Assembly: GCA_041665785.1 (NCBI GenBank)
Contig: JBAYIE010000006.1
Location: 38,021-102,020 of the forward strand
DNA: 64,000 nt
Source: Bacteroidia bacterium
GTDB lineage: Bacteria; Bacteroidota; Bacteroidia; UKL13-3
Direction: 5' to 3'
This document shows, piece by piece, positions 4,710 to 35,133 of this stretch. Numbering within the stretch: position 1 is the stretch's first letter; every line of letters begins with the position of its first letter. Below the pieces are notes generated by a model. The model made no database searches and was not told where the DNA came from. It saw only the letters and a list, made by a program, of their open reading frames with translations. The position numbers were made by a program, and so were the translations under genes.

Positions 4710-4864
4710 AGAATCAAAACCAGCCACTAACAGCGCCCTTGCGTCAGTTGGGTTTAATCCTTAATTTGTACATTCGTTTCACTTGCTAGCTTTTCGCTCG
4801 GACGACTGTGACTGCGTCGCGTCATCCAACAGAATGCAAAGCCGCAAAACGTTCAGGTAATTAT

Positions 4865-5800: not shown

Positions 5801-6045
5801 CTACCACTAACTATAATGAAGATTTCTTGAGCATACAAAAATGATCGAAAAGAATATTTCAATCTATCCAAATAGTTTATTTCTTTGAACGAACAAGTAG
5901 TTGCCCGACTGACTTTGTCTGATTTATAAACTAAGACTATTGAAAATTCACCAGATATCAGGAATAAACTCCTGATCTCAGCATTTGTTCTCTCCGTTTA
6001 TTTTCCTTAGCTTCACCCCTCCTCCGCTTTTGCCTTAAAGGATTT

Positions 6046-10597: not shown

Positions 10598-10689
10598 CTA
10601 TGCTGTTATTTGGTTCGCGATATTAAAATAAACTTTTTACAAGTCGACTCAAAAGTAGTGAATGTTCATTGAATTTAATTTGAGGGAAC

Positions 10690-10975
10690 GCAATAGTGCA
10701 TCTCCGCATGATGCAGCACAACTCCGAACGATGTAGCGCATCTCCGAATGCGCGATTCCTTTCACTACAATGTTGTAGGTGTATCATTTCTCTCCCCACG
10801 TCGCGATGTTCAACCGCGTTGCGGTTTTTTGAGGAGGGGGTGTCACGTGCGGGTTATGGAGGTTGAACCGCGTTGCGGTTATGGGTTTGTTGTTGAGTGT
10901 AAGGTTAGCCCGCCTTCGCCAAAATCTTCGGCGAGGCAATGCATTCTTCATTCTTCATTCTTCATTTTAAACCCA
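10690..10975. repeat. Composite intergenic repeat locus 1: paired GCATCTCCG hairpins, two AACCGC-GTT-GCGGTT hairpin boxes and a (CATTCTT)n microsatellite box.
   Basis: gcatctccgcatgatgc and gcgcatctccgaatgcgc hairpins. tgttcaaccgcgttgcggtt and atggaggttgaaccgcgttgcggtt boxes. ggcgaggcaatgcattcttcattcttcattcttcatttt box. The same boxes recur at three other loci in the window. Confidence 0.7.
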
Positions 10976-12630
10976 TCCTCCAAACGATTCGTTCTCCACT
11001 GCAGATTCGGATCCAAAATAGATGTACAAGGTATTTCTGCATCCCAGCATTGTGCATTACCCTCCGGCATCATCACGTATCCGCCCAGAGGCAAAGGCAC
11101 ACGCTGCATGGTGTTAGTTCCATATGGAAGCAGGGTTATCAGGTTGCGTTGGAATCGGTCTGCGGGCAAATATAATTTTGTAAAAAATATACCACCGGCT
11201 ATTAATAAAACCATGCCCCCAAACATTACCCAGCGGGCTTGAAAAAGGTGATTGAAGCGAGAAATAGTAAATCGGTGCTGAAACATCCAGGCAATGTAAA
11301 ACACGAGGTATCCAAAAATAAAACGCGTAGCGGGTGCATTCATAAACCACACCGGCATAGCCAATGCAATAGTGATTAGCAACAAAGCGGAATGCTCTTT
11401 GCGAATGATTTCCTTCCAACGTTTTCTGCTCCGGCGAATCAACAAGGCAATCATCAGAAACAAGGCATCAACCACAAACAAAGCCAACAGAAATTTACTG
11501 AACAGATCCAGATGCTTAATCCATTGCACAAACCATTGGGTGAAGGGCATCTGCTTTACCGTTTCCAAATCCACACCCGGTACACGCTCGTTCGCTATAT
11601 TGATGGCGCGTTCGTATTGCAAGGTTTCTGCACGCATTTTCCAGTCTACATCAAACAAGTCCAATTGATCCACCGGATAAAGCAGGTAACCCGATTTCAA
11701 TACATTGGTTTGCAACCAGGGTGTAAACAGCAGCAGGCAAAATAAAGTCAATACTGTAATACCTTTCCGTAACACATCCAGCTTCTGCATCAACAGCCAA
11801 CCTACAGGAATAAACAATAACGTAATGGCAGATAATTTAAATGTAACCATTGTTAAAAATACCAGCAAAAGGGGTGCCCGCTTTCTCCAATCGGAAACAG
11901 GTTGTTGAATCCATTCGGTAAATGTGATCAGTGTTAATATGGTGATCGCATAATCGTTGGTAACTGCACCCACATATTTTCGGTAGGCCATCAAAATCAG
12001 ATACAAAAAGATGACGCCCTTTAAAATGAAATTCGGATCGTTTTTGCGTGGAATAAAATACACGGTAGAAACAATCAGCAATAAAGCATTGAGTACATAA
12101 ACCGATTTCAATCCGAAGAATCCCATGCCGAAATAAGCATGCAGCAAAAACCAATTTGAATTATTGCCCAACTGCCTGCGCAAATTCCCTAAACCCTTCA
12201 CTACCGGAAATTGTTCGTCCCAACGAATGGCCTGCAAATGATAATCTCCAATATCTCCAACTCCTGCTCTGCCGGCCAGATTGAGGATAGCCGCACAAAA
12301 CACAACCATAAAAAAAATCACGTGCAAGGGCGATCCAAAACAATCCTGTTTGAGCTGTGTCAGGTATTTATTCCATTCTGCTTTAACCGGCAAAACCAAA
12401 GCAGTTAGCACCATCAATATCAGCAGGTGCACCATCCATCCCATGGGCAAAAACAAGTGCAGGATTTGTAACAGCAGGGCATCCAGACATAGACCCGGAA
12501 CCAGCAAAAAAAGTGCATGTGAAACTGTGAATTCGGTTCTGAGCAATTTCGAGAAAAGGTGTAAACAAACGATGCCGGAAACCCAGGCAACCAGAAAAGC
12601 ATAGATCAGAAATATTGCAGCGGACAGCAC
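10948..12630 (-). CDS. Polytopic integral membrane protein of unknown function.
   Basis: 560 aa with a dozen or more hydrophobic helices. The last seven codons (KMKNEE-stop) are encoded by the CATTCTTCATT repeat box. Confidence 0.55.
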   Translation of the reverse strand: MLSAAIFLIYAFLVAWVSGIVCLHLFSKLLRTEFTVSHALFLLVPGLCLDALLLQILHLFLPMGWMVHLLILMVLTALVLPVKAEWNKYLTQLKQDCFGSPLHVIFFMVVFCAAILNLAGRAGVGDIGDYHLQAIRWDEQFPVVKGLGNLRRQLGNNSNWFLLHAYFGMGFFGLKSVYVLNALLLIVSTVYFIPRKNDPNFILKGVIFLYLILMAYRKYVGAVTNDYAITILTLITFTEWIQQPVSDWRKRAPLLLVFLTMVTFKLSAITLLFIPVGWLLMQKLDVLRKGITVLTLFCLLLFTPWLQTNVLKSGYLLYPVDQLDLFDVDWKMRAETLQYERAINIANERVPGVDLETVKQMPFTQWFVQWIKHLDLFSKFLLALFVVDALFLMIALLIRRSRKRWKEIIRKEHSALLLITIALAMPVWFMNAPATRFIFGYLVFYIAWMFQHRFTISRFNHLFQARWVMFGGMVLLIAGGIFFTKLYLPADRFQRNLITLLPYGTNTMQRVPLPLGGYVMMPEGNAQCWDAEIPCTSILDPNLQWRTNRLEDGFKMKNEE

Positions 12631-12639
12631 GAAGTTAAA

Positions 12640-13803
12640 TTAAGCCAGTACCTGTTTTAAATCCTCCAGCAAATCTTCTACATCTTCTACACCTACACTG
12701 AGACGCAACAAACTATCCACCACACCAGCCTTTTCGCGCTCTGCTTTGGGAATGGAAGCATGGGTCATTGTAGCCGGATGATTTACCAGCGACTCCACAC
12801 CTCCCAAACTTTCGGCCAGTGCGAATACTTTAAATCGGGAAGCGATCCGGAACGTTTCGTTGAGGTCAGCACCTTTTAACACAATGGAAATCATCCCTCC
12901 GAAATCACGCATTTGTTTTTTGGCAATTTCGTGGTTAGGATGATCTGTGAAACCCGGCCAGTAAACTTTTTCAATTTTCGGATGTGTTTTCAAATACTGT
13001 GCAATCTGCCTTCCGTTTTCGCAATGTGCTTTCATGCGCAGGTGCAACGTTTTCAATCCGCGCAATACCAGAAAACTGTCTTGCGGACCAGGAGTAGCCC
13101 CACACGAATTATGAATAAAGGCTAGTTGCTCGTGAAGGTTATCATTGTTGGTGAGCAAAGCACCCATGATCACGTCACTGTGTCCGCCTAAATATTTGGT
13201 AACACTATGCATCACAATATCGGCACCCAGATCAAGTGGGTTTTGCAGGTATGGCGATGCAAAAGTATTATCGACTGCCAGAGTAATGGAATGCTTCTTC
13301 GCTATTGCCGCGCATGCCGCAATGTCCACAATCTGCATGGTAGGGTTAGTCGGCGTTTCAATCCAGATCAGTTTGGTATTGGGATTTATGTATGCAGAAA
13401 TATTGTTCGCATCATTCATATCGATGAAATGAAATTTGATGCCAAAATTTGCAAATACCTTGGTAAACATGCGGTATGTTCCACCGTATAAATCGTTGCC
13501 GGTAATCACTTCATCACCCGGACGCAACAGTTTGATTACTGCGTCGGTGGCTCCCATACCACTACTGAAACACAATCCGTATTTTGCATTTTCCAAAGCT
13601 GCCAGGCATTTTTCGAGGGCTGTGCGCGTCGGATTTTTTCCGCGTGCATAGGCATATCCTTTGTGTTTACCCGGACTTTCCTGCCAGAAGGTAGAAGTCT
13701 GGTAAATAGGTGTCATAACCGCTCCTGTGGTTGGATCGGGCTCTTGTCCGGCATGAATGGCTTTTGTTCCGAATTTCATATTGCGTGATTTTACTGTTGG
13801 CAA
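12640..13803 (-). CDS. PLP-dependent Cys/Met metabolism enzyme (cystathionine gamma-synthase / beta-lyase / methionine gamma-lyase family).
   Basis: GTKAIHAGQ, YARGKNPTR and the SVTKYLGGHSD lysine-site motif characteristic of this family. The real start may be the internal MKFGTK (13779). Confidence 0.8.
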   Translation of the reverse strand: MPTVKSRNMKFGTKAIHAGQEPDPTTGAVMTPIYQTSTFWQESPGKHKGYAYARGKNPTRTALEKCLAALENAKYGLCFSSGMGATDAVIKLLRPGDEVITGNDLYGGTYRMFTKVFANFGIKFHFIDMNDANNISAYINPNTKLIWIETPTNPTMQIVDIAACAAIAKKHSITLAVDNTFASPYLQNPLDLGADIVMHSVTKYLGGHSDVIMGALLTNNDNLHEQLAFIHNSCGATPGPQDSFLVLRGLKTLHLRMKAHCENGRQIAQYLKTHPKIEKVYWPGFTDHPNHEIAKKQMRDFGGMISIVLKGADLNETFRIASRFKVFALAESLGGVESLVNHPATMTHASIPKAEREKAGVVDSLLRLSVGVEDVEDLLEDLKQVLA

Positions 13804-13829
13804 ACTTAAGGCAAATCTGATTGAAGAAT

Positions 13830-13940
13830 GAATAATGAAAAATTAAGAATGAAAAGTTAAATTTCTTCATTCTTCTCACCGTCGCTTCGCTTTGGCGACA
13901 CAAAGCATTCTTCATTCTTAAATTTCTCATTCTTCATTTT
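13830..13940. repeat. Composite intergenic repeat locus 2: GGCGAC-CATTCTTCATTCTT microsatellite box.
   Basis: tcgcttcgctttggcgacacaaagcattcttcattcttaaatttctcattcttcattttt, plus reverse-orientation gaatgaa runs. Lies upstream of the PLP enzyme gene. Confidence 0.6.
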
Positions 13941-14143
13941 TAATTTATTTCCTTCAAAAACAGTCCTCTGCGAACATTTGCTTCCAAATATCATTTCCAT
14001 CTGTACTTTCGCCGCTTGTACAGCGTTTTAAGCAACGTAGCTATGGTTTTGAAATTTAATGCGATTCCATTTGCATACATTGTTTTAAACCTTAACTTTC
14101 AGAACGAAACAAAACCATTGATTACTTTCAAATAAAATAGCGC

Positions 14144-14509
14144 ATGCCTACCCAGTTTATAAAGAAGATGAACAAAACCGAAGCCGGTTTTCACCTGTTG
14201 ATGATGCTTTCTATGGCCGATGATCATATTCACCATACCGAACACGATGTCATTATTGATTTTCTGAACGATCATTTCAACGACAATATCGACCTGATCA
14301 AAGAACAAGCCTTTTTGAAAGCACTTCCAGCATCAGAGCAGGAAAGCCATTTTATGGAGACGGCAGAGCATTTGTTTGCTATCAGCAACGCCGATGAACG
14401 CCACACCATAACCCGTTTTGCCATGGATGTGGTAATGGCCGACGAAACCATGCAGCATCACGAAAATAAGCTGATCAACAAGCTGTATGATTGCTGGGAT
14501 ATCGAATAA
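14144..14509 (+). CDS. TerB-like (tellurite-resistance TerB / DjlA N-terminal-like) small protein.
   Basis: 121 aa, acidic and helical (GFHLLMMLSMADDHIHHTEHDVIIDFL...). Resembles the TerB family. Weak call. Confidence 0.4.
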   Translation: MPTQFIKKMNKTEAGFHLLMMLSMADDHIHHTEHDVIIDFLNDHFNDNIDLIKEQAFLKALPASEQESHFMETAEHLFAISNADERHTITRFAMDVVMADETMQHHENKLINKLYDCWDIE

Positions 14510-14555
14510 TCCCGGGATCAAACCTTCCCCTTTTACCCATAATTTCTGGTTTTCG

Positions 14556-15029
14556 ATGCGTGCCGGCCTTATTCTGCTGGTTGTTTTTATTCCTGTAACT
14601 TCGCTCCGGGCGCAGGATTGTGTGAATCAGGCTCTCGTAAATTCAACGTATTTCTGTCCCAATCCCGAGTTTTACCCCGTATGCGGTTGCGATGGCAAAA
14701 CTTACCGCAATTTGTGCGAAGCCCAGATGCGTAATGGCATACAATACTATACCGATGGCCCCTGCACTGGTTTTGAATTCGATATTCTACCCAATATTAC
14801 CGCTACCTACCTGGAATTTACCCTGGTTCAATCGGTTAACCCCAGTTTTGTAAAAATGATCATTATGGATGCCTGGGGCAAATTTCTGGTGATTGAGAAT
14901 GTTAGCATTACACCGCGATTTTACCGCAGCATTGATGTTTCCTGGTTGATGCAGGGAGTTTATTTTATACTTGTATACGATTCCAACGACAATTACCGGT
15001 TCCGCAGGTTCGTGAAATACAACCCATAA
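14556..15029 (+). CDS. Kazal-type serine protease inhibitor domain protein with a T9SS C-terminal domain.
   Basis: Signal peptide MRAGLILLVVFIPVTSLRAQ. Kazal signature CPNPEFYPVCGCDGKTYRNLCEAQ...GPC. The C-terminal ~90 aa resemble a Por sorting domain. Confidence 0.6.
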   Translation: MRAGLILLVVFIPVTSLRAQDCVNQALVNSTYFCPNPEFYPVCGCDGKTYRNLCEAQMRNGIQYYTDGPCTGFEFDILPNITATYLEFTLVQSVNPSFVKMIIMDAWGKFLVIENVSITPRFYRSIDVSWLMQGVYFILVYDSNDNYRFRRFVKYNP

Positions 15030-15093
15030 GCCTAAACCGGTTGATATCAAAACCTTTTTTTCACATTTTGTTGTGAATTAAGAATTCCTGCCC

Positions 15094-15101
15094 TATTTTT
15101 G
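15094..15101 (+). promoter_or_regulatory. Candidate Bacteroidetes -7 box (TAnnTTTG) for the rplM-rpsI operon.
   Basis: tatttttg lies about 37 nt upstream of the rplM start, with TTG-containing sequence about 20-25 nt further upstream. Confidence 0.3.
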
Positions 15102-15138
15102 CCACCCCTTATCAGAAAAGTATAAAAATTATTTTATC

Positions 15139-15582
15139 GTGGATACATTAAGTTATAAAACAAAGTCAGCCAACAAAGCTTCCGTTAAAAAGGATTGGTT
15201 TATTGTTGATGCTGAAGGCCAGACTCTGGGCCGTTTTGCAAGCAAAGTTGCCAATATTTTAAGAGGCAAACACAAAACCAGCTTTACCCCGCATGTGGAT
15301 TGTGGTGATAATGTGATCATTATCAACGCAGAAAAGATCCGCTTTACCGGAAACAAGCTGAACGACAAAGATTACGTATTCTATTCCGGTTTCCCGGGTG
15401 GACAGCGTTTCGAGTCGGCCAAAGTGATGCTCGAGAAAAAACCAACCTACGTTGTAGAGCATGCCATCGACGGTATGTTGCCCAACAACAAGCTGGGTCG
15501 CGAAATTTTCAGAAACCTATTTGTGTATGCAGGTACAGAACATCCGCACGCAGCACAACAACCTAAAACCTTAACCTTCTAA
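15139..15582 (+). CDS. rplM: 50S ribosomal protein L13.
   Basis: DWFIVDAEGQTLGRFASKVANILRGKHK is typical of L13. Confidence 0.9.
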   Translation: MDTLSYKTKSANKASVKKDWFIVDAEGQTLGRFASKVANILRGKHKTSFTPHVDCGDNVIIINAEKIRFTGNKLNDKDYVFYSGFPGGQRFESAKVMLEKKPTYVVEHAIDGMLPNNKLGREIFRNLFVYAGTEHPHAAQQPKTLTF

Positions 15583-15590
15583 ATCAGCTA

Positions 15591-15977
15591 ATGGAAATTA
15601 TAAACGCCATAGGAAGAAGAAAAACCGCAGTTGCCCGTGTATACCTCTCAGCAGGTACCGGAAACGTAACTGTTAACGGTAAAGATGTGAAAATATTTTT
15701 TCCGTCTGTTCTCTTACAACACGCCGTAAGCAAACCGTTTGATGTATCGAATACTGCCGGTCAGTTCGACGTTAAATGCAATGTAGATGGTGGTGGAATT
15801 ACCGGACAAGCCGATGCCATTAAACTGGCTATAGCCCGTGCCCTCGTAAAACACAATACCGAATTGAAGCCTTTGCTCAAAGCCGATGGCCTGATGACGC
15901 GCGATCCACGTATGGTGGAACGTAAGAAACCGGGACAGAAAAAGGCACGCAAACGTTTCCAGTTCGTAAAACGTTAA
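15591..15977 (+). CDS. rpsI: 30S ribosomal protein S9.
   Basis: GRRKTAVARVYL...GGGITGQADAIKLAIARAL...KKARKRFQFVKR. Confidence 0.9.
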   Translation: MEIINAIGRRKTAVARVYLSAGTGNVTVNGKDVKIFFPSVLLQHAVSKPFDVSNTAGQFDVKCNVDGGGITGQADAIKLAIARALVKHNTELKPLLKADGLMTRDPRMVERKKPGQKKARKRFQFVKR

Positions 15978-16002
15978 TCAGAATCCTTTTCAATTATAAA
16001 TT

Positions 16003-16743
16003 ATGTCAAAATTCACTCAGGAAGAGTTGTTGGAAGCGGGAGTGCACTTCGGTCACTTAACCCGCAAATGGAACCCCAAGATGGCCCCATATATTTTTAT
16101 GGAGAAAAACGGGATCCACCTCATCGATCTTAACAAGACAGCCCACAAGCTGGATGAGGCCTCTAGCGCCATTAAAAACATCGTAAAATCGGGTCGTAAG
16201 ATTTTGTTCGTGGCTACCAAAAAACAAGCCAAAGAAATCATCGAAACCGAAGCGAACAAGGTAAACATGCCCTTTGTAACCGAGCGTTGGCTGGGTGGTA
16301 TGTTAACCAACTTCACTACCGTTCGTAAATCCATCAAGAAACTCCAGAATCTGGATAAGATGGCCCAGGACGGTACTTACGCAAACATCAACAAGAAAGA
16401 ACGCCTCATGGTTGAGCGCGAGAAAATCAAGTTGACCCGCTTGCTCGGAGGTATTGCCGATTTAAACCGTTTGCCTGCTGCTCTGTTTATTGTGGACGTT
16501 AAACGCGAACACATTGCTGTGGCCGAAGCGCAAAAACTGAATATTCCAACGTTTGCCCTGGTAGATACGAATTCGGATCCTACAGTTGTAGATTTCCCGA
16601 TTCCTGCCAACGACGATGCCGCTAAATCCATAGCCCTGATCGCGAAAGTAATGACCGAAGCAATTGCTGAAGGACTTGCCGAACGCAAAAAGGATAAGGA
16701 AGAAAGCGACAAAGAAGCCGTTCCTTCAACTGAAGAAGCATAA
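16003..16743 (+). CDS. rpsB: 30S ribosomal protein S2.
   Basis: [24 protein letters not shown]...[22 protein letters not shown]. Confidence 0.9.
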
Positions 16744-16749
16744 CAAGGA

Positions 16750-16785
16750 AAATCGGCTACCAAAAAATAGCCGATTTTTTTTAAG
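16750..16785 (+). terminator. Stem-loop plus T-run between rpsB and tsf (terminator or attenuator).
   Basis: aatcggctaccaaaaaatagccgatttttttt. Confidence 0.5.
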
Positions 16786-16823
16786 GAATTATTTCAATCA
16801 CATTTATTTAAGGAGAGAAAAAC

Positions 16824-17657
16824 ATGAGTACAATTAGTGCAGGTGATGTAAACAAATTGCGCCAAATGACCGGCGCCGGAATGATGGATTGCAAAAAAGC
16901 GTTGACTGAAACCAACGGAGATTTTGAAGCCGCTGTAGATTATTTACGTAAAAAAGGTGCTAAGGTATCGGCCGCCCGTGCCGATCGCGAAGCCAAAGAA
17001 GGTGCAGTGATTGCCAAAACCACTGCCGATAAGAAAACCGGAGTGATCATTCAACTGAGTTGCGAAACTGATTTCGTGGCCAAAAACGACGACTTCGTAA
17101 AATTCGCCCATGCCGTTGCTGATCTGGCCCTGGCCAACAAACCGGCTACCGCTGAAGAACTGAAGGCATTGCCTTTTGAAGGCCTGACCCTGGGTGATAA
17201 AATCACTGAACAGGTAGGTAAGATCGGAGAAAAAATTGACGTGGTACGTTACGAACTGATGAATGGCGAGAATATCGTTCCTTATATCCATGGCGCTAAC
17301 CGTCTGGGTGTATTGGTTTCATTAAGCAGCCAGCCTACCGATGCCAATTTTGTTGCCGGTAAAGATGTAGCCATGCAGGTGGCTGCCCTGAATCCGGTGG
17401 CTTTGGATAAAGATGATGTAGATTCAGCCGTTGTAGCCCGCGAAATCGAAATCGGAAAAGAACAGGCTCGTGCCGAAGGAAAACCGGAAGCCATGCTGGA
17501 AAAAATTGCTCAGGGTAAATTGGGTAAATTCTACAAAGAATCAACCCTCATGAACCAGGAGTTTGTAAAAGACAATTCCAAAACCATCGCTCAAATGCTG
17601 GATGGCGTTGAGAAAGGCCTTACTGTGAAAGCCTTCAAACGCATAGCCTTAGGTTAA
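16824..17657 (+). CDS. tsf: Elongation factor Ts.
   Basis: VNKLRQMTGAGMMDCKKALTETNGDFEAAVDYLRKKG UBA-like N-terminus. Confidence 0.9.
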   Translation: MSTISAGDVNKLRQMTGAGMMDCKKALTETNGDFEAAVDYLRKKGAKVSAARADREAKEGAVIAKTTADKKTGVIIQLSCETDFVAKNDDFVKFAHAVADLALANKPATAEELKALPFEGLTLGDKITEQVGKIGEKIDVVRYELMNGENIVPYIHGANRLGVLVSLSSQPTDANFVAGKDVAMQVAALNPVALDKDDVDSAVVAREIEIGKEQARAEGKPEAMLEKIAQGKLGKFYKESTLMNQEFVKDNSKTIAQMLDGVEKGLTVKAFKRIALG

Positions 17658-17675
17658 TCCAATAGTATTTTAATA

Positions 17676-17735
17676 AAAAAGCGACTCCAAATTGGGGTCG
17701 CTTTTTTTATGCCCGCTCTCGCGGACTTTCAGTCC
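17676..17735. terminator. Bidirectional terminator cluster between convergent tsf (+) and a T9SS protein gene (-).
   Basis: aagcgactccaaattggggtcgctttttttat hairpin with a T-run, followed by the ctcgcggactttcagtccgtgag hairpin. Confidence 0.6.
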
Positions 17736-17798
17736 GTGAGAAGCCCTCAATAATGATTAAGTAATAGCAATTGGTTAAGTTCTCCTAGAACCATTTAA

Positions 17799-19112: not shown

Positions 19113-19260
19113 ATATACCCTTATTCACGACATTACATCGGGATAACAGAAAGTAGCAATCTGTAACCTGCTTAGTTCCGCCTTTTATAAGATGAACTTT
19201 TTAAACGGTTGCGATGCTGATTTGCCACTTTTATTTTGCATCAATCAAAGATTTGAATGG

Positions 19261-19983
19261 TTAACCGATAGGTATACTGCCTGCGCCTTTGCCGTTGGAT
19301 ATTTTTCTTAAAAATGCGGTAACCAGTTTATGCGGAACTTCCGGTGTCGAATTATCCTGCGGTACAAAAAGTGTTGCAATAAAAAAGGGATGTTTCTCCA
19401 ACTCCAGGATGCGTGCTTCGTTCATGGAATCGGTGCCTACAATTTTAAACCCGTTTGTATGCAGATGATTTTGATACTCCGGATTGAGGCCAAAATTGCA
19501 ATAATATTTCTCCTTGATTTTGCCCTGCCCAAATACTTCAAAGGTTTGTGATTTTCTGTATATAAGTTCAATCTCCAGCGTTTGACCGGCTAATGAACAA
19601 CTCAGTGGATTGATCACCAATTTAGAAGCATAGGGATCGTATTCGGCATGCTCAGCATCCTTTATACGCAGTACATTCCGGGCATATTCAATCACCATGT
19701 GCTGAAATCCGCCACAAGTGCCTAAGACCGGTAATTTATTTTCGCGTGCAAATTGAATAACCCTCAAAGCTCCGGCCATACTTTTATAAGGACTTCCCGG
19801 TGCAATCCAGAAACCGCTATAGGTTGATACGATCCGATCAAAATCACGCTGTGCCGTATCGGTAGGGATCCAGTCATATTGGAGTGGAATAGCAAATTTT
19901 ACCATAGCATGTCCAATCGCTTCATTCGTTGCCCGGTGAGGCCTGAATCCTTCCTGAAAATCTCCTATGATGGCAAGTTTCAT
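19261..19983 (-). CDS. Class I glutamine amidotransferase-like protein (CTP synthase C-terminal region-related).
   Basis: GTCGGFQHMVIEYARN catalytic Cys motif, followed by His/Glu. The protein is stand-alone. Confidence 0.65.
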   Translation of the reverse strand: MKLAIIGDFQEGFRPHRATNEAIGHAMVKFAIPLQYDWIPTDTAQRDFDRIVSTYSGFWIAPGSPYKSMAGALRVIQFARENKLPVLGTCGGFQHMVIEYARNVLRIKDAEHAEYDPYASKLVINPLSCSLAGQTLEIELIYRKSQTFEVFGQGKIKEKYYCNFGLNPEYQNHLHTNGFKIVGTDSMNEARILELEKHPFFIATLFVPQDNSTPEVPHKLVTAFLRKISNGKGAGSIPIG

Positions 19984-20064
19984 CGTGTATGAAGTTTTAA
20001 TTTGTTATTTCTCCTTCTCTCATTGTTGCACCAAATGGCACGAATACAATTGAAACATAATTTA

Positions 20065-20511
20065 TCATTTAACTTTTCCTTTCCCCTTAACTTTTAAGAT
20101 AGTCAGACCAAAAGGTGCCTTCAACTCTTTGTAATCATACATATTCAGGTATAAAGTCAGTGTATCAAAGGTATCTTCCCAGGTAACCTTGTACATATCC
20201 AGTAAAGCCATGCCATCAAATCCATGTTGGCTTTTTACCGGACAACAACTGCCCGCTCTGAAATAGCTTACTTTTTCGCCATGCGGACCAGCCAATGCAT
20301 TAAAAAATCTTCGCTGGTTTAACGGACCTTCATTTTTGGATGCACCTCCCACTTCTATTGGGTTTTTCTCTGAATATCCATACGTATTATCCGTAGATAT
20401 TTCAGTCAGCAAAACGGTTTGTTCGTTAAGCAGCCTTGGTTTTGCTGCATGCCGCGAAGCGGAACAGGAAAACACCATCGTCGAAATCCAGATGAAAATG
20501 AAATGCTTCAT
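20065..20511 (-). CDS. Hypothetical secreted protein or lipoprotein.
   Basis: Probable start at MKHFIFIWISTMVFSCSA (lipoprotein-like). The ORF track extends 21 codons further upstream. Confidence 0.45.
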   Translation of the reverse strand: MKHFIFIWISTMVFSCSASRHAAKPRLLNEQTVLLTEISTDNTYGYSEKNPIEVGGASKNEGPLNQRRFFNALAGPHGEKVSYFRAGSCCPVKSQHGFDGMALLDMYKVTWEDTFDTLTLYLNMYDYKELKAPFGLTILKVKGKGKVK

Positions 20512-20723
20512 TAGATTTTCTTTACGAATGAGAACAAAACCAACATATCCAAAGCGATTTAACGCTTTAGTCATACTTCTCCTGAAGGGTTCTTTAAAGG
20601 TACAAAGCTTTCAGGTGAAGGCAAATTAAATTGATGGCCATTTGCAAATCTGAATTAGAAAAATGACCATTTACGGATATTGCACCATCGTATTTAACGG
20701 TCTATTGATTACATACATTTGTA

Positions 20724-21782
20724 TTAACGCCTGCCATACATAGCCTCGTAATACTGCTGATATGTTCCATTGGTAATATCATCCAGCCAATCCTGATTGT
20801 TTAAATACCAATCTACCGTCAATTCCAATCCCTGTTCCGGTTGAACAGTCGGCTTCCAGCCCAATTCCGCAGTAATCTTTTGTGCATCGATAGCATAGCG
20901 CAAATCGTGTCCGGCACGGTCGGTTACGAAGGTGATTAATTTTTCTGCTGTCCCCGATTCGTTGTTGAACCTGGTATCCATGATCCTGCAAAGCATCCGA
21001 ATCAGGTCGATATTCCGCGTTTCGTTATTTCCACCAACGTTATAGGTTTCACCAATTCGACCGCTGTGAAAAATAAGGTCGATGGCCTGCGCATGATCTT
21101 TTACAAAAAGCCAGTCGCGTATGTTTTCGCCTTTGCCATAAACAGGCAGGGGAATGCTTTTGCGAATATTGTGAATGCACAAGGGAATCAACTTCTCGGG
21201 AAACTGGTTGGGACCGTAGTTATTGGAACAGTGGCTCAACACAACGGGCAACCTATACGTATTGTGATAGGCTCGTACAAAATGGTCGGATCCGGCTTTG
21301 GATGCTGAATAAGGCGATTGCGGATCGTATGGAGTGTTTTCAGAAAATAAACCATCTGTACCTAAACTGCCATAAACTTCATCGGTTGAAACGTGATAAA
21401 AGAGTTTACCTGCATAATTTCCATTCCAGTTTTCGCGGCAAGCATTCAACAGATTTACAGTTCCGATAATATTGGTAAGCACAAAATCCATTGGACTTTC
21501 AATCGACCGGTCTACATGCGTTTCAGCTGCCAGATGAATCACACTGTCAAATGCGTGTTTTGCAAAAAGTGCATTTACCATTTCAGCATCGGTTATATCT
21601 CCTTTGATGAATTGATAATTGGACCGGCCTTCCAAATCGCTCAGGTTCTCGAGATTACCAGCATAGGTAAGTTTATCTAAGTTGAAGATCTTCGCATCCG
21701 GGTAATTGTTCACAAACAGGCGTACCACATGCGAACCAATAAATCCGGCACCTCCCGTTATAAGTATTTTTCTATTTCCCAT
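20724..21782 (-). CDS. rfbB: dTDP-glucose 4,6-dehydratase.
   Basis: ILITGGAGFIGSH..., catalytic TDEVYG and YSASKAGSDHFVRAY motifs. Confidence 0.9.
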   Translation of the reverse strand: MGNRKILITGGAGFIGSHVVRLFVNNYPDAKIFNLDKLTYAGNLENLSDLEGRSNYQFIKGDITDAEMVNALFAKHAFDSVIHLAAETHVDRSIESPMDFVLTNIIGTVNLLNACRENWNGNYAGKLFYHVSTDEVYGSLGTDGLFSENTPYDPQSPYSASKAGSDHFVRAYHNTYRLPVVLSHCSNNYGPNQFPEKLIPLCIHNIRKSIPLPVYGKGENIRDWLFVKDHAQAIDLIFHSGRIGETYNVGGNNETRNIDLIRMLCRIMDTRFNNESGTAEKLITFVTDRAGHDLRYAIDAQKITAELGWKPTVQPEQGLELTVDWYLNNQDWLDDITNGTYQQYYEAMYGRR

Positions 21783-21860
21783 GAATGTTTTCCCTGAAAT
21801 TATGGATCACTAAGTTAACGCATAAGCGGGAAATTCCTGTATGCAGGTTACAATCAATCG

Positions 21861-22883
21861 TTACCCGTTATTTCCGGCACCGGCTTGTTCCCATTTCCAG
21901 GCGCTGCGCAACATATCCTCTATGCCGTATTTGGCCTTCCAATTGAGTTCCCGTGCAGCCAGTGAGGTGTCTGCGTATACCGCACCTACATCACCTTCGC
22001 GCCTTCCGGTAAGTATATAAGGAATGGCAATCCCACTTACTTTCCCAAATGCATTGATGAGGTCGAGTACCGAATAACCAACACCGGTTCCAATATTGAA
22101 GATTTCGAATTTCTTTTTATTCTGGCCTTTTATCAGCCTTTCCAAAGCCGCAATATGCGCTGTGGCCACGTCCACCACATGAATATAATCCCGGACGCAG
22201 GTGCCGTCAGCAGTATGATAATCACTGCCAAAAACATTCAGGTGCGCTCTTTTGCCTAAAGCGGTTTCGGTTATATACGGCACCAGATGATGGGGAGGAC
22301 CGTGTTGTACTTCGCCAATCAATGCCGTTTCATGTGCCCCGATCGGATTGAAATAGCGCAAGGCTAAGGCTTCAATGGGTTTGGTTTTACTGGTATGCTC
22401 CAGAATCTCTTCGCCCATTTGCTTTGTATTGCCATAGGTAGATTCAGCTTTCTTAACCGGCTCCATTTCAGTAACGGGCAAGGTGTTTGGATTACCATAA
22501 ACCGTACACGAAGAACTGAACACAATATGTTTCACTCCATGTTCCACCATAGCCTTGAGCAGGTTGATCTGCGAAAAAAGGTTATTGTGGTAGTATTTTA
22601 ATGGTTCTGCAACCGATTCATCCACCAGCAGAATTGCAGCAAAATGAATTACTGCCTTAATTTGAGGTTCGTCGCGAAACAATTGTTCCACTTCTGAAAA
22701 GTTGCATAATTCAGTTTGGTAAAATGAAGGTCGCTTTCCGGTAATCTGCTCAATGCGGTCCAGTACTTCGATGCGCGAATTCGACAGATTATCAGCAATT
22801 ACAACATCGTATCCAGCCTGAATCAGCTCAACTACAGTGTGTGAACCGATATAGCCGGTACCCCCGGTAACAAGGATTTTCAT
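21861..22883 (-). CDS. galE: UDP-glucose 4-epimerase.
   Basis: MKILVTGGTGYIGSHTVVEL, YGNTKQMGEEIL (YxxxK), RYFNPIGAH. Confidence 0.9.
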   Translation of the reverse strand: MKILVTGGTGYIGSHTVVELIQAGYDVVIADNLSNSRIEVLDRIEQITGKRPSFYQTELCNFSEVEQLFRDEPQIKAVIHFAAILLVDESVAEPLKYYHNNLFSQINLLKAMVEHGVKHIVFSSSCTVYGNPNTLPVTEMEPVKKAESTYGNTKQMGEEILEHTSKTKPIEALALRYFNPIGAHETALIGEVQHGPPHHLVPYITETALGKRAHLNVFGSDYHTADGTCVRDYIHVVDVATAHIAALERLIKGQNKKKFEIFNIGTGVGYSVLDLINAFGKVSGIAIPYILTGRREGDVGAVYADTSLAARELNWKAKYGIEDMLRSAWKWEQAGAGNNG

Positions 22884-22888
22884 ACCAA

Positions 22889-23242
22889 TCAGGCTTGTTC
22901 AGCAGTTTCTTCCCCTTCGGTTTCTTCTTCTTCGCGGGTAGTGCCTTCCATCAGGTGACGGATATCGATTAATTCGTCTTTGTTGTACTTATTCTGGTAA
23001 TCCAACAACAGATCCAGGAAATAATCCAGATTCGCTTTTCCGTCTTCTTCTTCCAGGTATAAAAAAGTATAATCGCCGTTTGCTTCAATATTCTCATAAG
23101 CCAGACGGATCATGCGTACATATCCGGGCTCATTCAGGTTGCTCTTAAACCATTCGCGCAGTGCTTTCAGCTGTTCTATCGCCTTTACTCCAACCCCTTC
23201 ATTAGCCAATGTATTTTTCAGCGCTTCCAACAAGTTTTTCAT
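22889..23242 (-). CDS. Hypothetical acidic protein.
   Basis: 117 aa with an acidic C-terminus (TTREEEETEGEETAEQA). Only 5 nt downstream of galE, so probably co-transcribed. Confidence 0.45.
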   Translation of the reverse strand: MKNLLEALKNTLANEGVGVKAIEQLKALREWFKSNLNEPGYVRMIRLAYENIEANGDYTFLYLEEEDGKANLDYFLDLLLDYQNKYNKDELIDIRHLMEGTTREEEETEGEETAEQA

Positions 23243-23305
23243 CTTTATTTGAGTTTTGTTTTGGCAACGAAACTAAACAATTTAAATATTGTAAAAAACT
23301 CAAAT

Positions 23306-23677
23306 ATGAAAGCGATCTCAACCATAGGCCTGCTGGTAGTTTCCAACCTCTTTATGACATTTGCCTGGTATGGCCATTTACAGTTTCAGAAAATAGGCTG
23401 GTTTAAAGGTACGGGGTTGATTGGAATCATCCTGATCAGCTGGTTTATCGCCTTGCTTGAATATGCTTTTCAGGTGCCGGCCAATCGCATAGGTTTTTCA
23501 AACAACGGTGGACCTTTTTCTATGGTTGAACTCAAAACCATTCAGGAAGCTATTTCTATTTTGGTCTTTATCCTGGTCAATGTGTTCATTTTTCGTGAAG
23601 GCCCTGTTCAATGGAATCATGCCCTTGGATTTATCCTCATCATTTTGGCGGTTTATATTATCTTTAAAAAGTGGTAA
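23306..23677 (+). CDS. Small DMT-superfamily membrane protein (DUF486-like).
   Basis: Four predicted transmembrane helices and AWYGHLQFQ / FQVPANRIGF motifs. Start taken at MKAIST. Confidence 0.55.
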   Translation: MKAISTIGLLVVSNLFMTFAWYGHLQFQKIGWFKGTGLIGIILISWFIALLEYAFQVPANRIGFSNNGGPFSMVELKTIQEAISILVFILVNVFIFREGPVQWNHALGFILIILAVYIIFKKW

Positions 23678-24285
23678 ACAAGATGCATCCCCGCGCAGCA
23701 CAGGCTCTATCGGTTGTTTTTCACCCGGTTTTTGTAAACAGTTTTTCGCTTCTGCTGTTGTTTCTGCTTTTTCCTTCACTGCGGTATGGAGTACATCCGG
23801 CGATGAAAGTTTTTTACTGGTCCGTTATTTTCATTTCTACCGGAATTGTTCCCATGGCCTGGGTAGGTGTGTCACGCCTGTTGGGCAAAATCGATTCTAT
23901 CCTGTTGCCCAACAGCGACGACCGCAACCTGCCTTATATTCTTACAGCCAGTTTGTACATGCTCGATTTTTACCTGGCCGGACAATGGGGTGCTTCTTCT
24001 CTTTTCAGAGCCTATTTGCTGGCTTGCAGCAGCGTGGTTGTTTCTGTGTTAATCATCAATCAATTTACTAAAATAAGTATCCATGCTGCCAGTTTAGGAG
24101 CTCTGGCCGCCGTTATTCACCAATCGGCATTGGTAGCGGGTTTTGATGTGCGTTACCTGATGATTGCTGCATTGGTGATTTCAGGTTTGGTACTTTCTGC
24201 TCGTCTTTGGGCTGAATCACACACATCAACTCAAGTGTATTTAGGTTTCTTGGTTGGTTTCTTATGGATGGTACTAATGTTATAA
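23671..24285 (+). CDS. Integral membrane protein, possibly PAP2-like.
   Basis: Multiple transmembrane helices. KISIHAAS and ARLWAESH only partially match PAP2 motifs 2 and 3. Low confidence. Confidence 0.45.
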   Translation: MVNKMHPRAAQALSVVFHPVFVNSFSLLLLFLLFPSLRYGVHPAMKVFYWSVIFISTGIVPMAWVGVSRLLGKIDSILLPNSDDRNLPYILTASLYMLDFYLAGQWGASSLFRAYLLACSSVVVSVLIINQFTKISIHAASLGALAAVIHQSALVAGFDVRYLMIAALVISGLVLSARLWAESHTSTQVYLGFLVGFLWMVLML

Positions 24286-24339
24286 CGAATTGCTGAATTT
24301 GTCCTATTGCTCAACTATATTCATTACAAAGCCCTACAG

Positions 24340-24850
24340 GAAATGCATTCTTCATTTTTCCCGCCGCCGCTGCGCTATGGCGAGGCGAGGCATTTTTCAT
24401 TCTTCATTTCATGTCCCGACAGCAGGGCTAGTCAGTCTTCGTTAAAGCTACTACCGGTCAAGTTCGCTATAGCTATGGCGAGACAAGGCATTTTCTCACC
24501 TCGCGTTGTTCAACCGCGTTGCGGTTGTGGGGTCTTTTCTTCGCATAGAGTTATGGAGGTTGAACCGCGTTGCGGTTTGTCGGGGCATGATCTGAATTTA
24601 AAGGGATAACATAACGCATTAACGAATATGCGATTCATATTGCCCAACATCGTTTTGGTGAGATGAGTCAGTCTTCGCTATAGCTTCGACAGAACAAATC
24701 CATCTACGATAAAGCTACGGCGAGGCAACGCATTCTTCATTCTTCCCGCCGCCGCTAAGGCTTTGGCGAGACAAGGCATTTTTCCCTCCTACGCTAATGC
24801 TACTGTGGACAATGCATTCCTCATTTTTAATTCTTCATTTTTAATTTTAA
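24340..24850. repeat. Composite intergenic repeat locus 3: two CATTCTTCATT + CCCGCCGCCGCT + GGCGAG boxes flanking two AACCGC-GTT-GCGGTT hairpin boxes.
   Basis: gcattcttcatttttcccgccgccgctgcgctatggcgaggcgaggcattttt. tgttcaaccgcgttgcggttgtgg. atggaggttgaaccgcgttgcggtttg. gcattcttcattcttcccgccgccgctaaggctttggcgagacaaggcattttt. Confidence 0.7.
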
Positions 24851-24863
24851 TTATCTTCCCGCC

Positions 24864-25646
24864 ATGAGTTACGAAACCATTTTATATGAAGTAAACGACG
24901 GTATAGCTACCCTCACGCTGAACCGTCCGGATGTATTCAATGCCTTTAACGAACAGCAGAGTTTTGATGTGCTGGACGCATTGAAAAAAACCGAAAAAGA
25001 TAAATCCATCCGTGTACTGATTATCACAGGAGCAGGCAAAGCGTTTTGTTCGGGTCAGGACCTGAAAAGTATAGCCGGAAGCCAGAATCGTTCCTTGAGC
25101 GATTCGTTGTACAAACGTTACAATCCCATGATCCGTGCATTGCGCAACATACCCATACCGGTTATATGCAAACTCAACGGTGTGGCTGCAGGCGCCGGAT
25201 GCTCGCTAGCACTGGCCTGCGATTTTATTGTAGCGTCAGAGGTTGCAACGTTAATTGAAGTGTTTATACATGTTGGTCTGGTACTTGATTCCGGATCTTC
25301 ATACTTCCTTCCGCGTATAGTTGGATCCAACCGTGCATTTGAACTCAGTACCATGGGTGGAAAAGTTTCGGCTATGCAGGCACTCGAATGGGGAATGGTA
25401 AACCGTCTAGTGAAACATGAAGAACTGGATGCAGAGACGCAAAAAATTGCAGCCTTTTATGCGCAAGCTCCTACCAAGGCAATTGCATTGATCAAAAAAA
25501 TGCTGAATAAATCTTCTCACTCAGATCTCGATACCATGTTGCAGTACGAAGCCTATTGCCAGGAAATTGCAGGTCGCAGCGATGATTACAAAGAGGGCGT
25601 TAGTGCTTTCAACGAAAAACGTAAAGCAGCATTCAAAGGTTCATAA
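24864..25646 (+). CDS. Enoyl-CoA hydratase/isomerase (crotonase) family protein.
   Basis: LTLNRPDVFNAFN, ITGAGKAFCSGQDLK, VICKLNGVAAGAGCSLALACDF. Confidence 0.85.
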   Translation: MSYETILYEVNDGIATLTLNRPDVFNAFNEQQSFDVLDALKKTEKDKSIRVLIITGAGKAFCSGQDLKSIAGSQNRSLSDSLYKRYNPMIRALRNIPIPVICKLNGVAAGAGCSLALACDFIVASEVATLIEVFIHVGLVLDSGSSYFLPRIVGSNRAFELSTMGGKVSAMQALEWGMVNRLVKHEELDAETQKIAAFYAQAPTKAIALIKKMLNKSSHSDLDTMLQYEAYCQEIAGRSDDYKEGVSAFNEKRKAAFKGS

Positions 25647-25655
25647 TCCAGGCGT

Positions 25656-26054
25656 ATGAAAACAACCGATATCCACCAAACACTCACCTTCCCAACCACT
25701 CCGCTTGATCTGTATCAATGCCTGATGGATGAACGAAAGCACAGTTCATTCACCGGATCTCCTGCAGTGATTGAAGACAAAGAAGACACATCCTTCACAA
25801 CATATGATGGATATATTGAAGGTAAAAATATTGTACTGGAACGCGGAAAGAAAATTGTGCAAACCTGGAAAGCCAACGAAGAAGAATGGCCGGAAAATCA
25901 CTTTTCGGAAGTGGTTTTTTCGCTGAGTGCGTCGCCTGAAGGTTGCCTGCTTGAATTTTATCATACTGCCGTTCCGGAGACTTTGGCTAAGGATATAGAG
26001 GCAGGCTGGGCCCAATATTACTGGGATCCATTGCGGTATTACCTGAACCGGTAA
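25656..26054 (+). CDS. SRPBCC superfamily protein (AHSA1 / activator of Hsp90 ATPase-like).
   Basis: 132 aa with a start and length consistent with an AHSA1-type domain. Confidence 0.6.
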   Translation: MKTTDIHQTLTFPTTPLDLYQCLMDERKHSSFTGSPAVIEDKEDTSFTTYDGYIEGKNIVLERGKKIVQTWKANEEEWPENHFSEVVFSLSASPEGCLLEFYHTAVPETLAKDIEAGWAQYYWDPLRYYLNR

Positions 26055-26159
26055 GTTTATCGGTGTGCGGTTTTTGTAACTCTTAAACTAGTTGCACCAA
26101 CTTGTCCTGCAATCTTCCTTTATTGATTTTACTGGTTAGTCATCACTTAACTTCGACCT

Positions 26160-26715
26160 ACAGGTACGTCGCGATGTACAACCGCGTTGCGGTTGGATGT
26201 CACGTCAGCTGCCTACGCCATCTGTTATTGAGGTGAAACCGCGTTGCGGTTAGTTGCTGCTGGCTATGGTTTCAGCTATTGGGTGAGATATAGCATTACG
26301 ATCAGTTGCTTGCTATCTTTGGCTTCGGTTATTGAGGTGTAACCGCGTTGCGGTTAGTTGCGGTTAGTTGCTGCTGGCTATGGTTTCCGTAAGCAGAGTG
26401 ATATTGCGTTACGATTAGTTGCTCGCTTACTTTGGCTTCGGTTATTGAGGGGTAACCGCGTTGCGGTTTGTTGAGGTTAGTTGCTGCTGGCTATGGTTTC
26501 CGTTAGCAGAGTGATATTGCGTTGCAATTAGTTGCTTGCTGTCCTTAGCTTTTGTTATTGAGGTGTAACCGCATTGCGGTTAGTTGCATCGTTGCATAAT
26601 GATAGATTATGAATCGTTTCCTTCCCCTGCACTTCGGTGAGGCGATGCATTCTTCCCGCCGCCGCTAAAGCTACCGCGGGCAATGCATTTTTCATTCTTC
26701 ATTCTTCATTTTCTC
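26160..26715. repeat. Composite intergenic repeat locus 4, including a ~3.4-copy tandem array of ~105-119 bp units (26223..26590). Each unit carries the AACCGC-GTT-GCGGTT hairpin. The locus ends with CCCGCCGCCGCT and (CATTCTT)n boxes.
   Basis: Units begin gttattgagg(t/g)g(t/a)aaccgcgttgcggttagttgc...gctgctggctatggtttc...gatattgcgtt(a/g)c(g/a)attagttgct...ctttggcttcg. Terminal gatgcattcttcccgccgccgctaaagctaccgcgggcaatgcatttttcattcttcattcttcatttt. Confidence 0.75.
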
Positions 26716-27105
26716 CCCCACCCATTCCCGTATATAATCAACAATCTCATGGGTATTGGCGCCCGGAAGAAACAATTTTCCAACGCCTGCTTTTGTGAGT
26801 GTTTTTAAATCTTCGTCCGGAATAATTCCACCACCTGTAAGCAGAATATCGCTGAGGCCTTCCTGCTTCATCAATTCGAGTAACCTTGGAAATACAGTAT
26901 TGTGTGCCCCTGATAAGATACTCACACCGATTACATCCACATCTTCCTGGAGGGCTGATTTAACAACCATTTCAGGTGTCTGACGCAATCCGGTGTAAAT
27001 AACTTCCATGCCGGCATCGCGCAGTGCGGTGGCAATTACTTTGGCTCCGCGGTCGTGGCCATCGAGGCCAACTTTTGCTACCAGTACGCGTATAGGTCTA
27101 TTCAT
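26692..27105 (-). CDS. Cobalamin (B12)-binding domain protein, similar to the methylmalonyl-CoA mutase C-terminal domain.
   Basis: [33 protein letters not shown]...[14 protein letters not shown]12-binding Rossmann signature (DxHxxG). The final KMKNEE-stop is encoded by the CATTCTTCATT repeat box. Confidence 0.8.
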
Positions 27106-35130: not shown

Positions 35131-35133
35131 CTT

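Follow-up and report, generated by a model that had tools for sequence, protein, structure and literature searches.

The window analyzed here, 64,000 nucleotides (nt) of a 110.6-kb metagenome contig (GC 0.43) from a Bacteroidia metagenome-assembled genome (MAG), carries clusters of short repeats at four places, named loci A to D, which are listed in Table 1 together with their modules and neighboring genes. With the 7.6 kb that follow the window end, the stretch of contig read amounts to 71.6 kb. An earlier note on this DNA had placed the repeats between genes or over gene 3' ends, and the clusters are indeed intergenic and non-coding (locus C has no called gene, and locus D has only a 46-aa open reading frame (ORF) in the gene table), with two gene ends reaching into a repeat tail.

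The boxes that the note had named were all found where it had located them, far above the expectation from 100 dinucleotide-preserving shuffles. AACCGCGTTGCGGTT, with at most one mismatch, has nine matches against 0.00 expected, at positions 10812, 10866, 24512, 24563, 26180, 26237, 26341, 26454, and 26567; GCATTCTTCATT, also with at most one mismatch, has 13 against 0.85, and CCCGCCGCCGCT has three against 0.15. All of these matches are on the + strand, an orientation that is fixed regardless of the direction of the neighboring genes. One more match to the hairpin, with two mismatches, at 3426-3440, was taken as chance; it lies inside a gene and lacks the flanks of the family.

By reading the four loci beside related loci, we resolved the clusters into mosaics of at least four modules. 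The first, REP1 (REP, repetitive extragenic palindrome), is a hairpin with a 7-bp stem and a 3-nt loop, (C/G)AACCGC-GTT-GCGGTT(G/C), preceded by a conserved 5' flank which is either of A-type (GTCGCGRTGTWC), always first in a cluster, or of B-type (GTTATKGAGGTNN), in one to several copies. In 28 units the flank columns G-7, A-6, G-4, and T-3 are conserved, giving the pattern GA-N-GT-NN; a CGTC, about 10 nt from the hairpin foot (CGTCGCG upstream), occurs only in A-type units. REP1 units follow each other head-to-tail with a spacing of 51-57 nt, or of 104-113 nt in locus D, in whose 113-nt tandem intact and decayed hairpin units alternate according to Tandem Repeats Finder (TRF) and repeat finding. 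Two independent assemblies, Logan contigs L003 and L004, both stop at window position 26272, inside this array.

The second module, REP2, is another hairpin, CCCRCC-TTCGCTAAAGCTAY-GGCGRG...GCATT, built around the loop TTCGCTAAAGCTAC, with the arms CCCRCC and GGCGRG and then CAANGCATT. The earlier note had taken CCCGCCGCCGCT and GGCGAGRCAA for separate boxes, when they are really two arms of this one unit. The third is an A/T-rich tail with a 7-nt period, made of CATTCTT, CATTTTT, and AATTTTT heptamers, (CATTCTT)n, whose period was found by TRF at 10942-10966, 13822-13853, and 26686-26710. These arrays have at least three tandem 7-nt units near start or stop codons, as intergenic heptamer tandem repeats do by definition. 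The fourth, missed in the note, is a GCGCAT-YTCCKA-ATGCGC hairpin (GCGCATCTCCGAATGCGC) of locus A, with a diverged copy in locus C.

On the + strand the order is REP1 units, REP2 units, heptamer tail, and modules are freely gained or lost among loci. The AACCGC hairpin is present at A, C, and D, so that REP1 amounts to nine units in three loci of the 71.6 kb, and it is missing from locus B, where heptamers and a degenerate GC hairpin are found; the whole region of locus B folds as a long hairpin (z = -3.06). The different orientations described in the note exist for one inverted heptamer stretch of the same locus (13822-13860) and not elsewhere, all other units being co-oriented. Such combinations of palindromes with other motifs in variable order and number, characteristic of bacterial interspersed mosaic elements (BIMEs), were found in loci A to D, in L167, and in L126-L150. 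The two gene ends that reach into a heptamer tail belong to unrelated - strand genes, which draw their last codons from it, both proteins ending in KMKNEE; the B12-binding ortholog at an empty site ends in ...ERNRPNT.

Table 1. Positions of the repeat clusters, their modules, adjoining gene ends, and heptamer arrays in other loci (A to D, window positions; L numbers, positions in the locus named).
Feature	Position	Strand	Context
Locus A, mosaic	10690..10975	+	3' of 560-aa DUF8201 gene, 5' of epimerase gene (both -)
Locus A, GCGCAT..ATGCGC hairpin	10736-10753		related 20-nt tandem at 10702-10748
Locus A, REP1 A-type	10798-10826
Locus A, REP1 B-type	10852-10880
Locus A, REP2	~10909-10943
Locus A, heptamer tail	10941-10968
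End of 560-aa gene, ...FKMKNEE and stop	10948..10968	-	reverse strand of heptamer tail
Locus B	13822..13945	.	between divergent pyridoxal phosphate (PLP) enzyme (-) and TerB (+) genes; no REP1
Locus B, inverted heptamer array	13822-13860
Locus B, degenerate GC hairpin GTCGC..GCGAC	~13883-13901
Locus B, forward heptamer tail	13905-13945
Locus C	24339..24850	+	between 200-aa gene and enoyl-CoA hydratase (ECH) gene, both +
Locus C, CATT/REP2/tail block	24339-24408
Locus C, REP2-like	24440-24494
Locus C, REP1 A-type	24498-24526
Locus C, REP1 B-type	24549-24577
Locus C, diverged GCGCAT-type hairpin	~24614-24640
Locus C, REP2 units	24676, 24707, 24753, 24792
Locus C, heptamer tail	24808-24850		13 nt 5' of ECH ATG
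Locus D	26166..26712	+	between convergent AHSA1 (+) and B12-binding (-) genes
Locus D, REP1 A-type	26166-26194
Locus D, REP1 B-type	26223-26251
Locus D, 113-nt tandem x3	26243-26587		REP1 at 26341, 26454, 26567
Locus D, REP2 units	~26632-26690
Locus D, heptamer tail	26685-26712
End of B12-binding-domain gene, ...GEKMKNEE and stop	26692..26712	-	reverse strand of heptamer tail
L085, heptamer arrays	1156-1602, 3838-3965
L113, heptamer arrays			many
L063, heptamer arrays	4025-5900
L097, heptamer arrays	6911-6995
L101, heptamer arrays	578-734, 2505-2648
L165, heptamer arrays	9814-9905, 19921-19954

Dispersal, relatives, and folding

When metagenomes were scanned for two exact hairpins separated by 30-60 nt, 44 loci were obtained, six of which are long contigs (~44-106 kb, GC 0.42-0.45) of the metagenome Ga0172379. 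These six contigs carry REP1 arrays with the 51-nt period, REP2, and the heptamer tail at seven intergenic sites, with units co-oriented within each cluster and with no DNA match to the window beyond the repeats. The boxes are therefore not confined to the window, and the presence of the modules at unrelated intergenic loci of these contigs, which belong to another organism, shows a dispersed family, as the earlier note had supposed, and not a local duplication. Its description of the family as specific to this lineage is wrong for the hairpin, whose 15-mer, together with a 5' flank resembling that of the window, is also found in Planctomycetota, Verrucomicrobiota, Acidobacteriota, and other Bacteroidota; the full mosaic is absent from the ~15-20 kb around the ECH gene in relatives with 85-87% ECH identity.

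Orthologous loci, which we reached through ECH homologs, differ in the presence of the elements. The sites of 579 and 638 bp in the window correspond to 92 and 9 bp in the fully syntenic L166 (87% ECH identity) and to 240 and 149 bp in L167 (98% ECH identity), which holds fewer modules and lacks the REP1 array of locus D. L177-L180 (86-87% ECH identity) show another synteny around ECH and none of the modules. Around loci A and B, the TerB gene was used to look for strain variants, and it retrieved nothing beyond the same strain. Terminal inverted repeats are lacking in loci A, C, and D, and no target-site duplication was seen between the window and L166 or L167, at junctions blurred by divergence and block replacement. 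Of the REP/BOX/MITE-like mosaic that the note had proposed (MITE, miniature inverted-repeat transposable element), the REP/BIME likeness stands, and no MITE-like features were found.

REP1 folds into its 7-bp stem and 3-nt loop in every context, a short palindrome as in REP systems mobilized by REP-associated tyrosine transposases (RAYTs). In an alignment of 40 oriented units (A3), 97% of the cells are paired and three of seven pairs are changed on both sides, the six inner pairs having been partly chosen for pairing. The seventh pair, outside this selection, is paired in 32 of 40 units (CG 12, GC 12, GU 5, UA 2, AU 1, unpaired 8; permutation p < 5e-5). Variant stems that keep the family flanks are found as AACCCC-GTT-GGGGTT in the L150 array and, in the chromosome OZ257140.1 (L165), as GTCGCGGGTGTTC-AACCCTTTTAGGGTT, followed by heptamers and GAAGGTTG-AACCCCTTTCGGGGTT. 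The hairpin proposed in the note thus folds as predicted with a covarying stem. Again, in REP2, the stems covary (CCGCC/GGCGG, CCACC/GGTGG, and CTACC/GGTAG). Conserved flanks around a covarying stem are expected where a protein recognizes a folded hairpin together with the bases next to it, as IS200/IS605 transposases and TnpA_REP do (PMC6006769).

Other classes of hairpin or repeat were considered. An intrinsic terminator was rejected, a T-run (TTTTT) being present only after the unit at 10812, one of nine, with G- or A-rich sequence after the other eight. Searches of the window and of 16 related loci against Rfam gave no match at gathering score, and at E <= 1, over 10600-27000, no match overlapping a cluster. 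A CRISPR array was also rejected; the "spacers" of locus D are themselves repeated (113-nt tandem, 86% matches), and the gene tables hold no cas genes.

The hairpin and a Y1 transposase gene

The GTDB species genomes, scanned for GKNN plus the hairpin, gave at least 116 loci, mostly noise or other families. A rough regex sort of the matches listed assigned ~23 to GC-rich "GGGCT..." units of Acidobacteria and the Planctomycetes-Verrucomicrobia-Chlamydiae (PVC) group, ~10 to proteobacterial long palindromes, and ~8 to coding sequence for prepilin N-termini (KPQRGFT), leaving ~70 unclassified. In GC-rich Proteobacteria, the exact 15-mer is coding, its reverse strand encoding the prepilin-type N-terminus (K)PQRGFTLIEL (L101 545-575, L016, L019, L039, L053, L070, L094, and L107), and part of the cross-phylum match list is therefore unrelated to repeats.

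In the low-GC Bacteroidota matches, the hairpin adjoins a gene of 147-148 aa that encodes a Y1 HUH transposase (Pfam PF01797, Y1_Tnp). Among the matches listed, this gene is present in 12 of the 160 loci chosen only by hairpin sequence (L052, L056, L060, L127, L164, L157, L158, L154, L147, L105, L038, and L067) and absent from the other 148, and in 10 of the 12 the nearest hairpin lies 7-92 nt from it; L118 is cut at the start codon of the gene. Assuming a low-copy gene and a genome of a few Mb, we would roughly expect fewer than 1 in 160 random 8-kb pieces to hold such a gene. The loci with the gene belong to Bacteroidota and to GC-rich genomes labeled Verrucomicrobia and Klebsiella, among others. 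One of them, L052, lies on the complete Bacteroidia chromosome OZ257140.1 (3.28 Mb), which encodes an ECH 85% identical to that of the window; there, CAACCGCGTTGCGGTTGGATGT starts 8 nt past the Y1 stop codon and matches the A-type unit at 26179-26201 of locus D.

Different Saprospiraceae genomes have the Y1 gene at one and the same place, between rlmN upstream and DinB-family genes downstream (rlmN | Y1 | DinB; L170-L173 6001-6447; also L168 and L169), with the compensated hairpin CAACCACGTCGTGGTTG 5 nt past its stop codon and differing small hairpins repeated on both sides. The conserved site suggests that Y1 behaves here as a resident gene and not as a hopping insertion sequence (IS). The Y1 proteins score 56-76 bits on the NCBIfam model transpos_IS200 (cutoff 55), with Y..xQ..HH and a C-terminal (E/D)(W/F/Y)DEKY in every hairpin-linked copy. 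The motif Y---Q--HH is the signature of subclass 1.2, a group of ~148-aa, low-copy proteins of Cyanobacteria and Bacteroidetes without IS200-type ends (Quentin et al. 2018, PMC6006769).

Two observations concern the surroundings of Y1 genes. In L060, two tandem SAM-I/IV riboswitch aptamers (1956-2221; 53.5 and 41.9 bits) lie between the Y1 gene and metK. In L177 (14072-14608) and L178 (12920-13456), both with 87% ECH identity, a different Y1_Tnp-like gene of 178 aa, with a weak Pfam match and the motif SHIH...YIHMNP, lies 3' of the gene for 1-deoxy-D-xylulose-5-phosphate (DXP) synthase, so that two or more classes of Y1 transposase may be present in the lineage.

Origin of the clusters and comparison with known repeats

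We consider that these clusters probably form a mosaic family similar to REP/BIME, in which a Y1 transposase resembling RAYTs acts in trans on the hairpin unit as its substrate, with additional local tandem amplification. REP1 would be the cognate single-strand DNA substrate of the 147-148-aa, usually single-copy HUH Y1 transposase of the IS200/IS605 superfamily, subclass 1.2, whose gene would be located elsewhere in the genome, the enzyme working in trans as RAYTs do on REPs. It would bind the folded hairpin on single-stranded DNA and cut and rejoin beside it, which would move or copy hairpin segments into intergenic DNA and over gene 3' ends. The head-to-tail arrays with 51-nt and 113-nt periods would result from slippage or unequal recombination, by which the clusters then expand and contract locally. 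REP2, the GCGCAT..ATGCGC hairpin, and the heptamer tail would be comparable with the additional motifs in E. coli BIMEs, either moving together with REP1 or building up next to it. The lack of terminal inverted repeats and of a target-site duplication fits the "peel and paste" chemistry of Y1 enzymes, which is established for IS200/IS605 (PMC6006769). The sequences themselves show the repetition, the dispersal, the intergenic position, the presence or absence between relatives, the covariation of the stems, and, in other genomes, the physical linkage of hairpin and Y1 gene; we infer the presence of such an enzyme in this genome, its binding, cutting, and mobilization of the units, and any effect on the host.

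Several results weigh against this interpretation. In the 71.6 kb read, the four loci span no more than 16 kb, and the data fit a local spread just as well as dispersal throughout the genome of this strain; the differences of L167 from the window are block replacements and not clean insertions. The REP1 units are head-to-tail and do not form the inverted doublets typical of RAYT-mobilized REPINs, column counts in 28 units show no GTAG tag at the hairpin foot, and REP orientation compared with GC skew at seven loci has no consistent sign. Independent evidence for the pairing of REP1 comes from the seventh pair and the variant stems. On the enzyme side, neither tblastn nor the gene table places a Y1 gene in the window or the 7.6 kb beyond, and the closest Y1 homologs found are 72% identical to the OZ257140.1 protein, none being tied to the samples of the window. 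The Y1 proteins score 21-29 bits on NCBIfam REP_Tyr_transpos against a cutoff of 80, outside the RAYT clade, and subclass 1.2 is listed as having no REPs (Quentin et al. 2018, PMC6006769).

The position of several modules would also suit cis-acting elements of the host, with RNA hairpins that end or stabilize transcripts, heptamers that tune translation, and an incidental link to a transposase. Of the five heptamer arrays, three point forward toward a start codon, at 13 nt (ECH), 43 nt (PLP enzyme, start as called), and ~200 nt (TerB), similar to the TAACTGA heptamers, for which translational control was proposed (PMC4679880), and two clusters lie at gene 3' ends, where E. coli REPs stabilize mRNA (PMC6006769). 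Such an origin nevertheless appears unlikely, given that L166 has the same genes without the elements, which are thus not required parts of the control regions of those genes, that the number of modules varies between strains with 98% identical ECH, that a T-run follows only one hairpin in nine with no Rfam match even at E <= 1, and that the + strand orientation is kept whatever the direction of the neighboring genes. A role in cis is compatible with mobilization by a transposase, as mobile REPs can acquire host roles. The regular 51-nt and 113-nt head-to-tail periods (the latter with one intact and one decayed hairpin), the co-orientation of four loci within 16 kb, the strain differences that look like block replacement, and the break of two assemblies inside the array would all be explained by a satellite-like local expansion, in which seed motifs are amplified by slippage, unequal crossing-over, and gene conversion without any transposase. 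We nevertheless regard this as quite unlikely to be the whole origin, since recombination alone does not put the same modules at unrelated loci on six other contigs, and it leaves unexplained both the hairpin-Y1 neighborhood in 12 motif-selected loci across phyla and the conserved 5' flanks around covarying stems.

The Y1 proteins pass the transpos_IS200 cutoff (56-76 versus 55 bits) and fail the RAYT model, and hairpins are found on both sides of the gene in L157 and in inverted orientation in L147, all of which would be expected if the hairpins were the left and right ends (LE/RE) of an autonomous IS200-type IS and the window copies solo ends or relics. It is very unlikely that they are, because 148 of 160 hairpin loci have no gene, nine hairpins occur without one in 71.6 kb, the gene keeps a single syntenic position across different Saprospiraceae genomes, subclass 1.2 is low-copy and without IS200 end structures (PMC6006769), and the decay of an IS does not leave tandem arrays of one "end". 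Mobilization as MITEs by a DDE transposase finds some likeness in locus B, with inverted heptamer arrays around a short core, and in similar inverted heptamer pairs of other genomes, but it is extremely improbable in view of the co-oriented direct arrays of units, the lack of terminal inverted repeats in loci A, C, and D, the lack of a visible target-site duplication at empty sites (where divergence limits resolution), and the fact that no DDE transposase was seen nearby. None of these explanations accounts for the transposase linkage together with the dispersal as well as a REP/BIME-like family mobilized by a Y1 enzyme.

Compared with the REP/BIME and RAYT systems of Enterobacteria and Pseudomonas (REPtron, REPIN-RAYT), the clusters share multi-copy short extragenic palindromes in mosaic clusters with other motifs, a location between genes and at gene 3' ends, a presence and number that vary between close strains, a small low-copy HUH Y1 gene bordered by palindromes (here in other genomes), and the absence of a target-site duplication. 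They differ in their head-to-tail 51- and 113-nt periods without inverted doublets, in a stem of only 7 bp with a 3-nt loop, in the conserved GA-N-GT-NN flank in place of a GTAG/CGTC tag at the foot, in a linked transposase that is of the IS200-like subclass 1.2 and not a class 2 RAYT, in a hairpin conserved across phyla instead of species-specific, and in clusters that end in A/T-rich heptamer arrays. The absence of a foot tag and of inverted doublets, together with a non-RAYT transposase, makes the family a variant and not a member of the canonical REP/BIME-RAYT family.

Similar mixtures of likeness and difference are found with two other systems. Like the subterminal hairpins of IS608 and ISDra2 (IS200/IS605), REP1 is a small perfect or imperfect hairpin with conserved bases 5' of its foot, found in other genomes a few nt past the transposase stop codon, and probably also recognized on single-stranded DNA by a Y1 HUH transposase. 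Here, however, the hairpins are multiplied and scattered without the gene, which is low-copy and syntenic and therefore not in the transposing unit. The CGTC REPs (Di Nocera et al. 2013, PMC3733652) are also short palindromes in Bacteroidetes, and the A-type flank holds CGTCGCG; they have stems of 8-9 bp opening with A/T pairs, loops of 4-5 nt, and the tag at the foot, are mostly head-to-head dimers, and have no associated transposase, head-to-tail dimers being rare in known REP families (PMC3733652). In contrast, CGTC is here restricted to A-type units, at ~10 nt from the foot, and a Y1 gene is linked.

A full-text literature search for the hairpin sequence found no paper. The category is an ordinary one, selfish or semi-domesticated intergenic repeats; the organization and the transposase partner are unreported. 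REP/RAYT systems are understood almost only from Proteobacteria, and this case points to an equivalent in Bacteroidia with head-to-tail arrays and heptamer tails, and to a different branch of Y1 transposases, one listed without repeats in the published survey (PMC6006769). The conservation of hairpin and flank in several phyla offers a concrete and cheap biochemical test with one 148-aa protein and one 30-nt oligonucleotide. For the annotation of Bacteroidota MAGs, it matters that such clusters break short-read assemblies, create spurious ORFs, and rewrite gene 3' ends, as in the two proteins ending in KMKNEE.

Heptamer arrays and other repeats

Besides the TAACTGA repeats, the short tandemly repeated repetitive (STRR) heptamers of heterocystous cyanobacteria form another class of intergenic heptamer repeats. 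According to PMC4679880, TAACTGA repeats occur in Beggiatoaceae, Cyanobacteria, and Bacteroidetes; like the heptamers of the window, they are tandem 7-nt intergenic units, often forward before a start codon or reverse after a stop codon, missing from the same site in close relatives, and with several heptamers per genome. The heptamers here are different, being CATTCTT/CATTTTT, with ACTTCGT in a second family, and they are fused to GC-rich REP2 hairpins, a linkage not mentioned in the passages of PMC4679880 consulted.

The second repeat family brackets a gene of 122 aa (34271-34639, -; Pfam 23S_rRNA_IVP) with inverted arrays over 33824-35148. An 89/97-nt tandem of ~4 copies, which includes heptamers of TACGAAG type, lies on the left, and on the right are ACTTCGT heptamers and a 64-nt unit in three copies. 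The spacer between the guanylate kinase and YicC genes measures 99 bp in the syntenic L166 against ~1400 bp in the window, which identifies the whole cassette as an insertion. The 89-nt unit is also found in the unrelated L145 (7724-8090), and one Ga0172379 contig carries the second family.

Several genomes of other phyla, sampled only via the hairpin scan, hold many tandem heptamer arrays, commonly in inverted pairs separated by ~50-100 nt (Table 1), a plain observation and not a measure of enrichment. A TTGGTCA heptamer is common to a Planctomycetota MAG and the Bacteroidia chromosome OZ257140.1, and AGTCCAA to a Pyrinomonadaceae MAG and the same chromosome. The Saprospiraceae loci with the Y1 gene have no heptamer arrays in 50 kb. 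The fused tails, the period-7 arrays in hairpin-bearing genomes, and the overlapping taxonomic range of heptamers and subclass 1.2 may point to one enzyme system behind both, which would account for the fusion of heptamer tails to hairpin units and for the occurrence of arrays in several hairpin-carrying genomes. Taken together, it is a quite doubtful proposal that subclass 1.2 is a pan-bacterial, RAYT-like "domesticated" clade and that the same enzyme system also makes or spreads intergenic heptamer arrays. Its conserved substrate may then be a (C/G)AACCNN-loop-NNGGTT(G/C) hairpin with a GA-N-GT flank, and the arrays of Bacteroidota, Cyanobacteria, Planctomycetota, and Acidobacteriota, including those of TAACTGA- and STRR-type, which often form inverted pairs, may share one origin. 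If the link to heptamers were true, a class of bacterial tandem repeats previously without a mechanism would gain one.

Further repeats of other kinds are present in the window. A 144-nt direct repeat in two copies (59738-60016; 92-95% identical) lies directly 3' of a tRNA gene (59609-59695), and two adjacent 65-nt A/T-rich direct repeats (61597-61731; 75% identical), each with an internal ATATGTT...AACATAT symmetry, lie between a Fic-family gene and the next gene. Repeat families spaced ~291, 582, 870, and 1170-1200 nt occur at 48400-56000 inside a very long gene; in L181, this region encodes a 2833-aa Por_Secre_tail/Ig-like protein, and these repeats look like repeated protein domains and not DNA elements.

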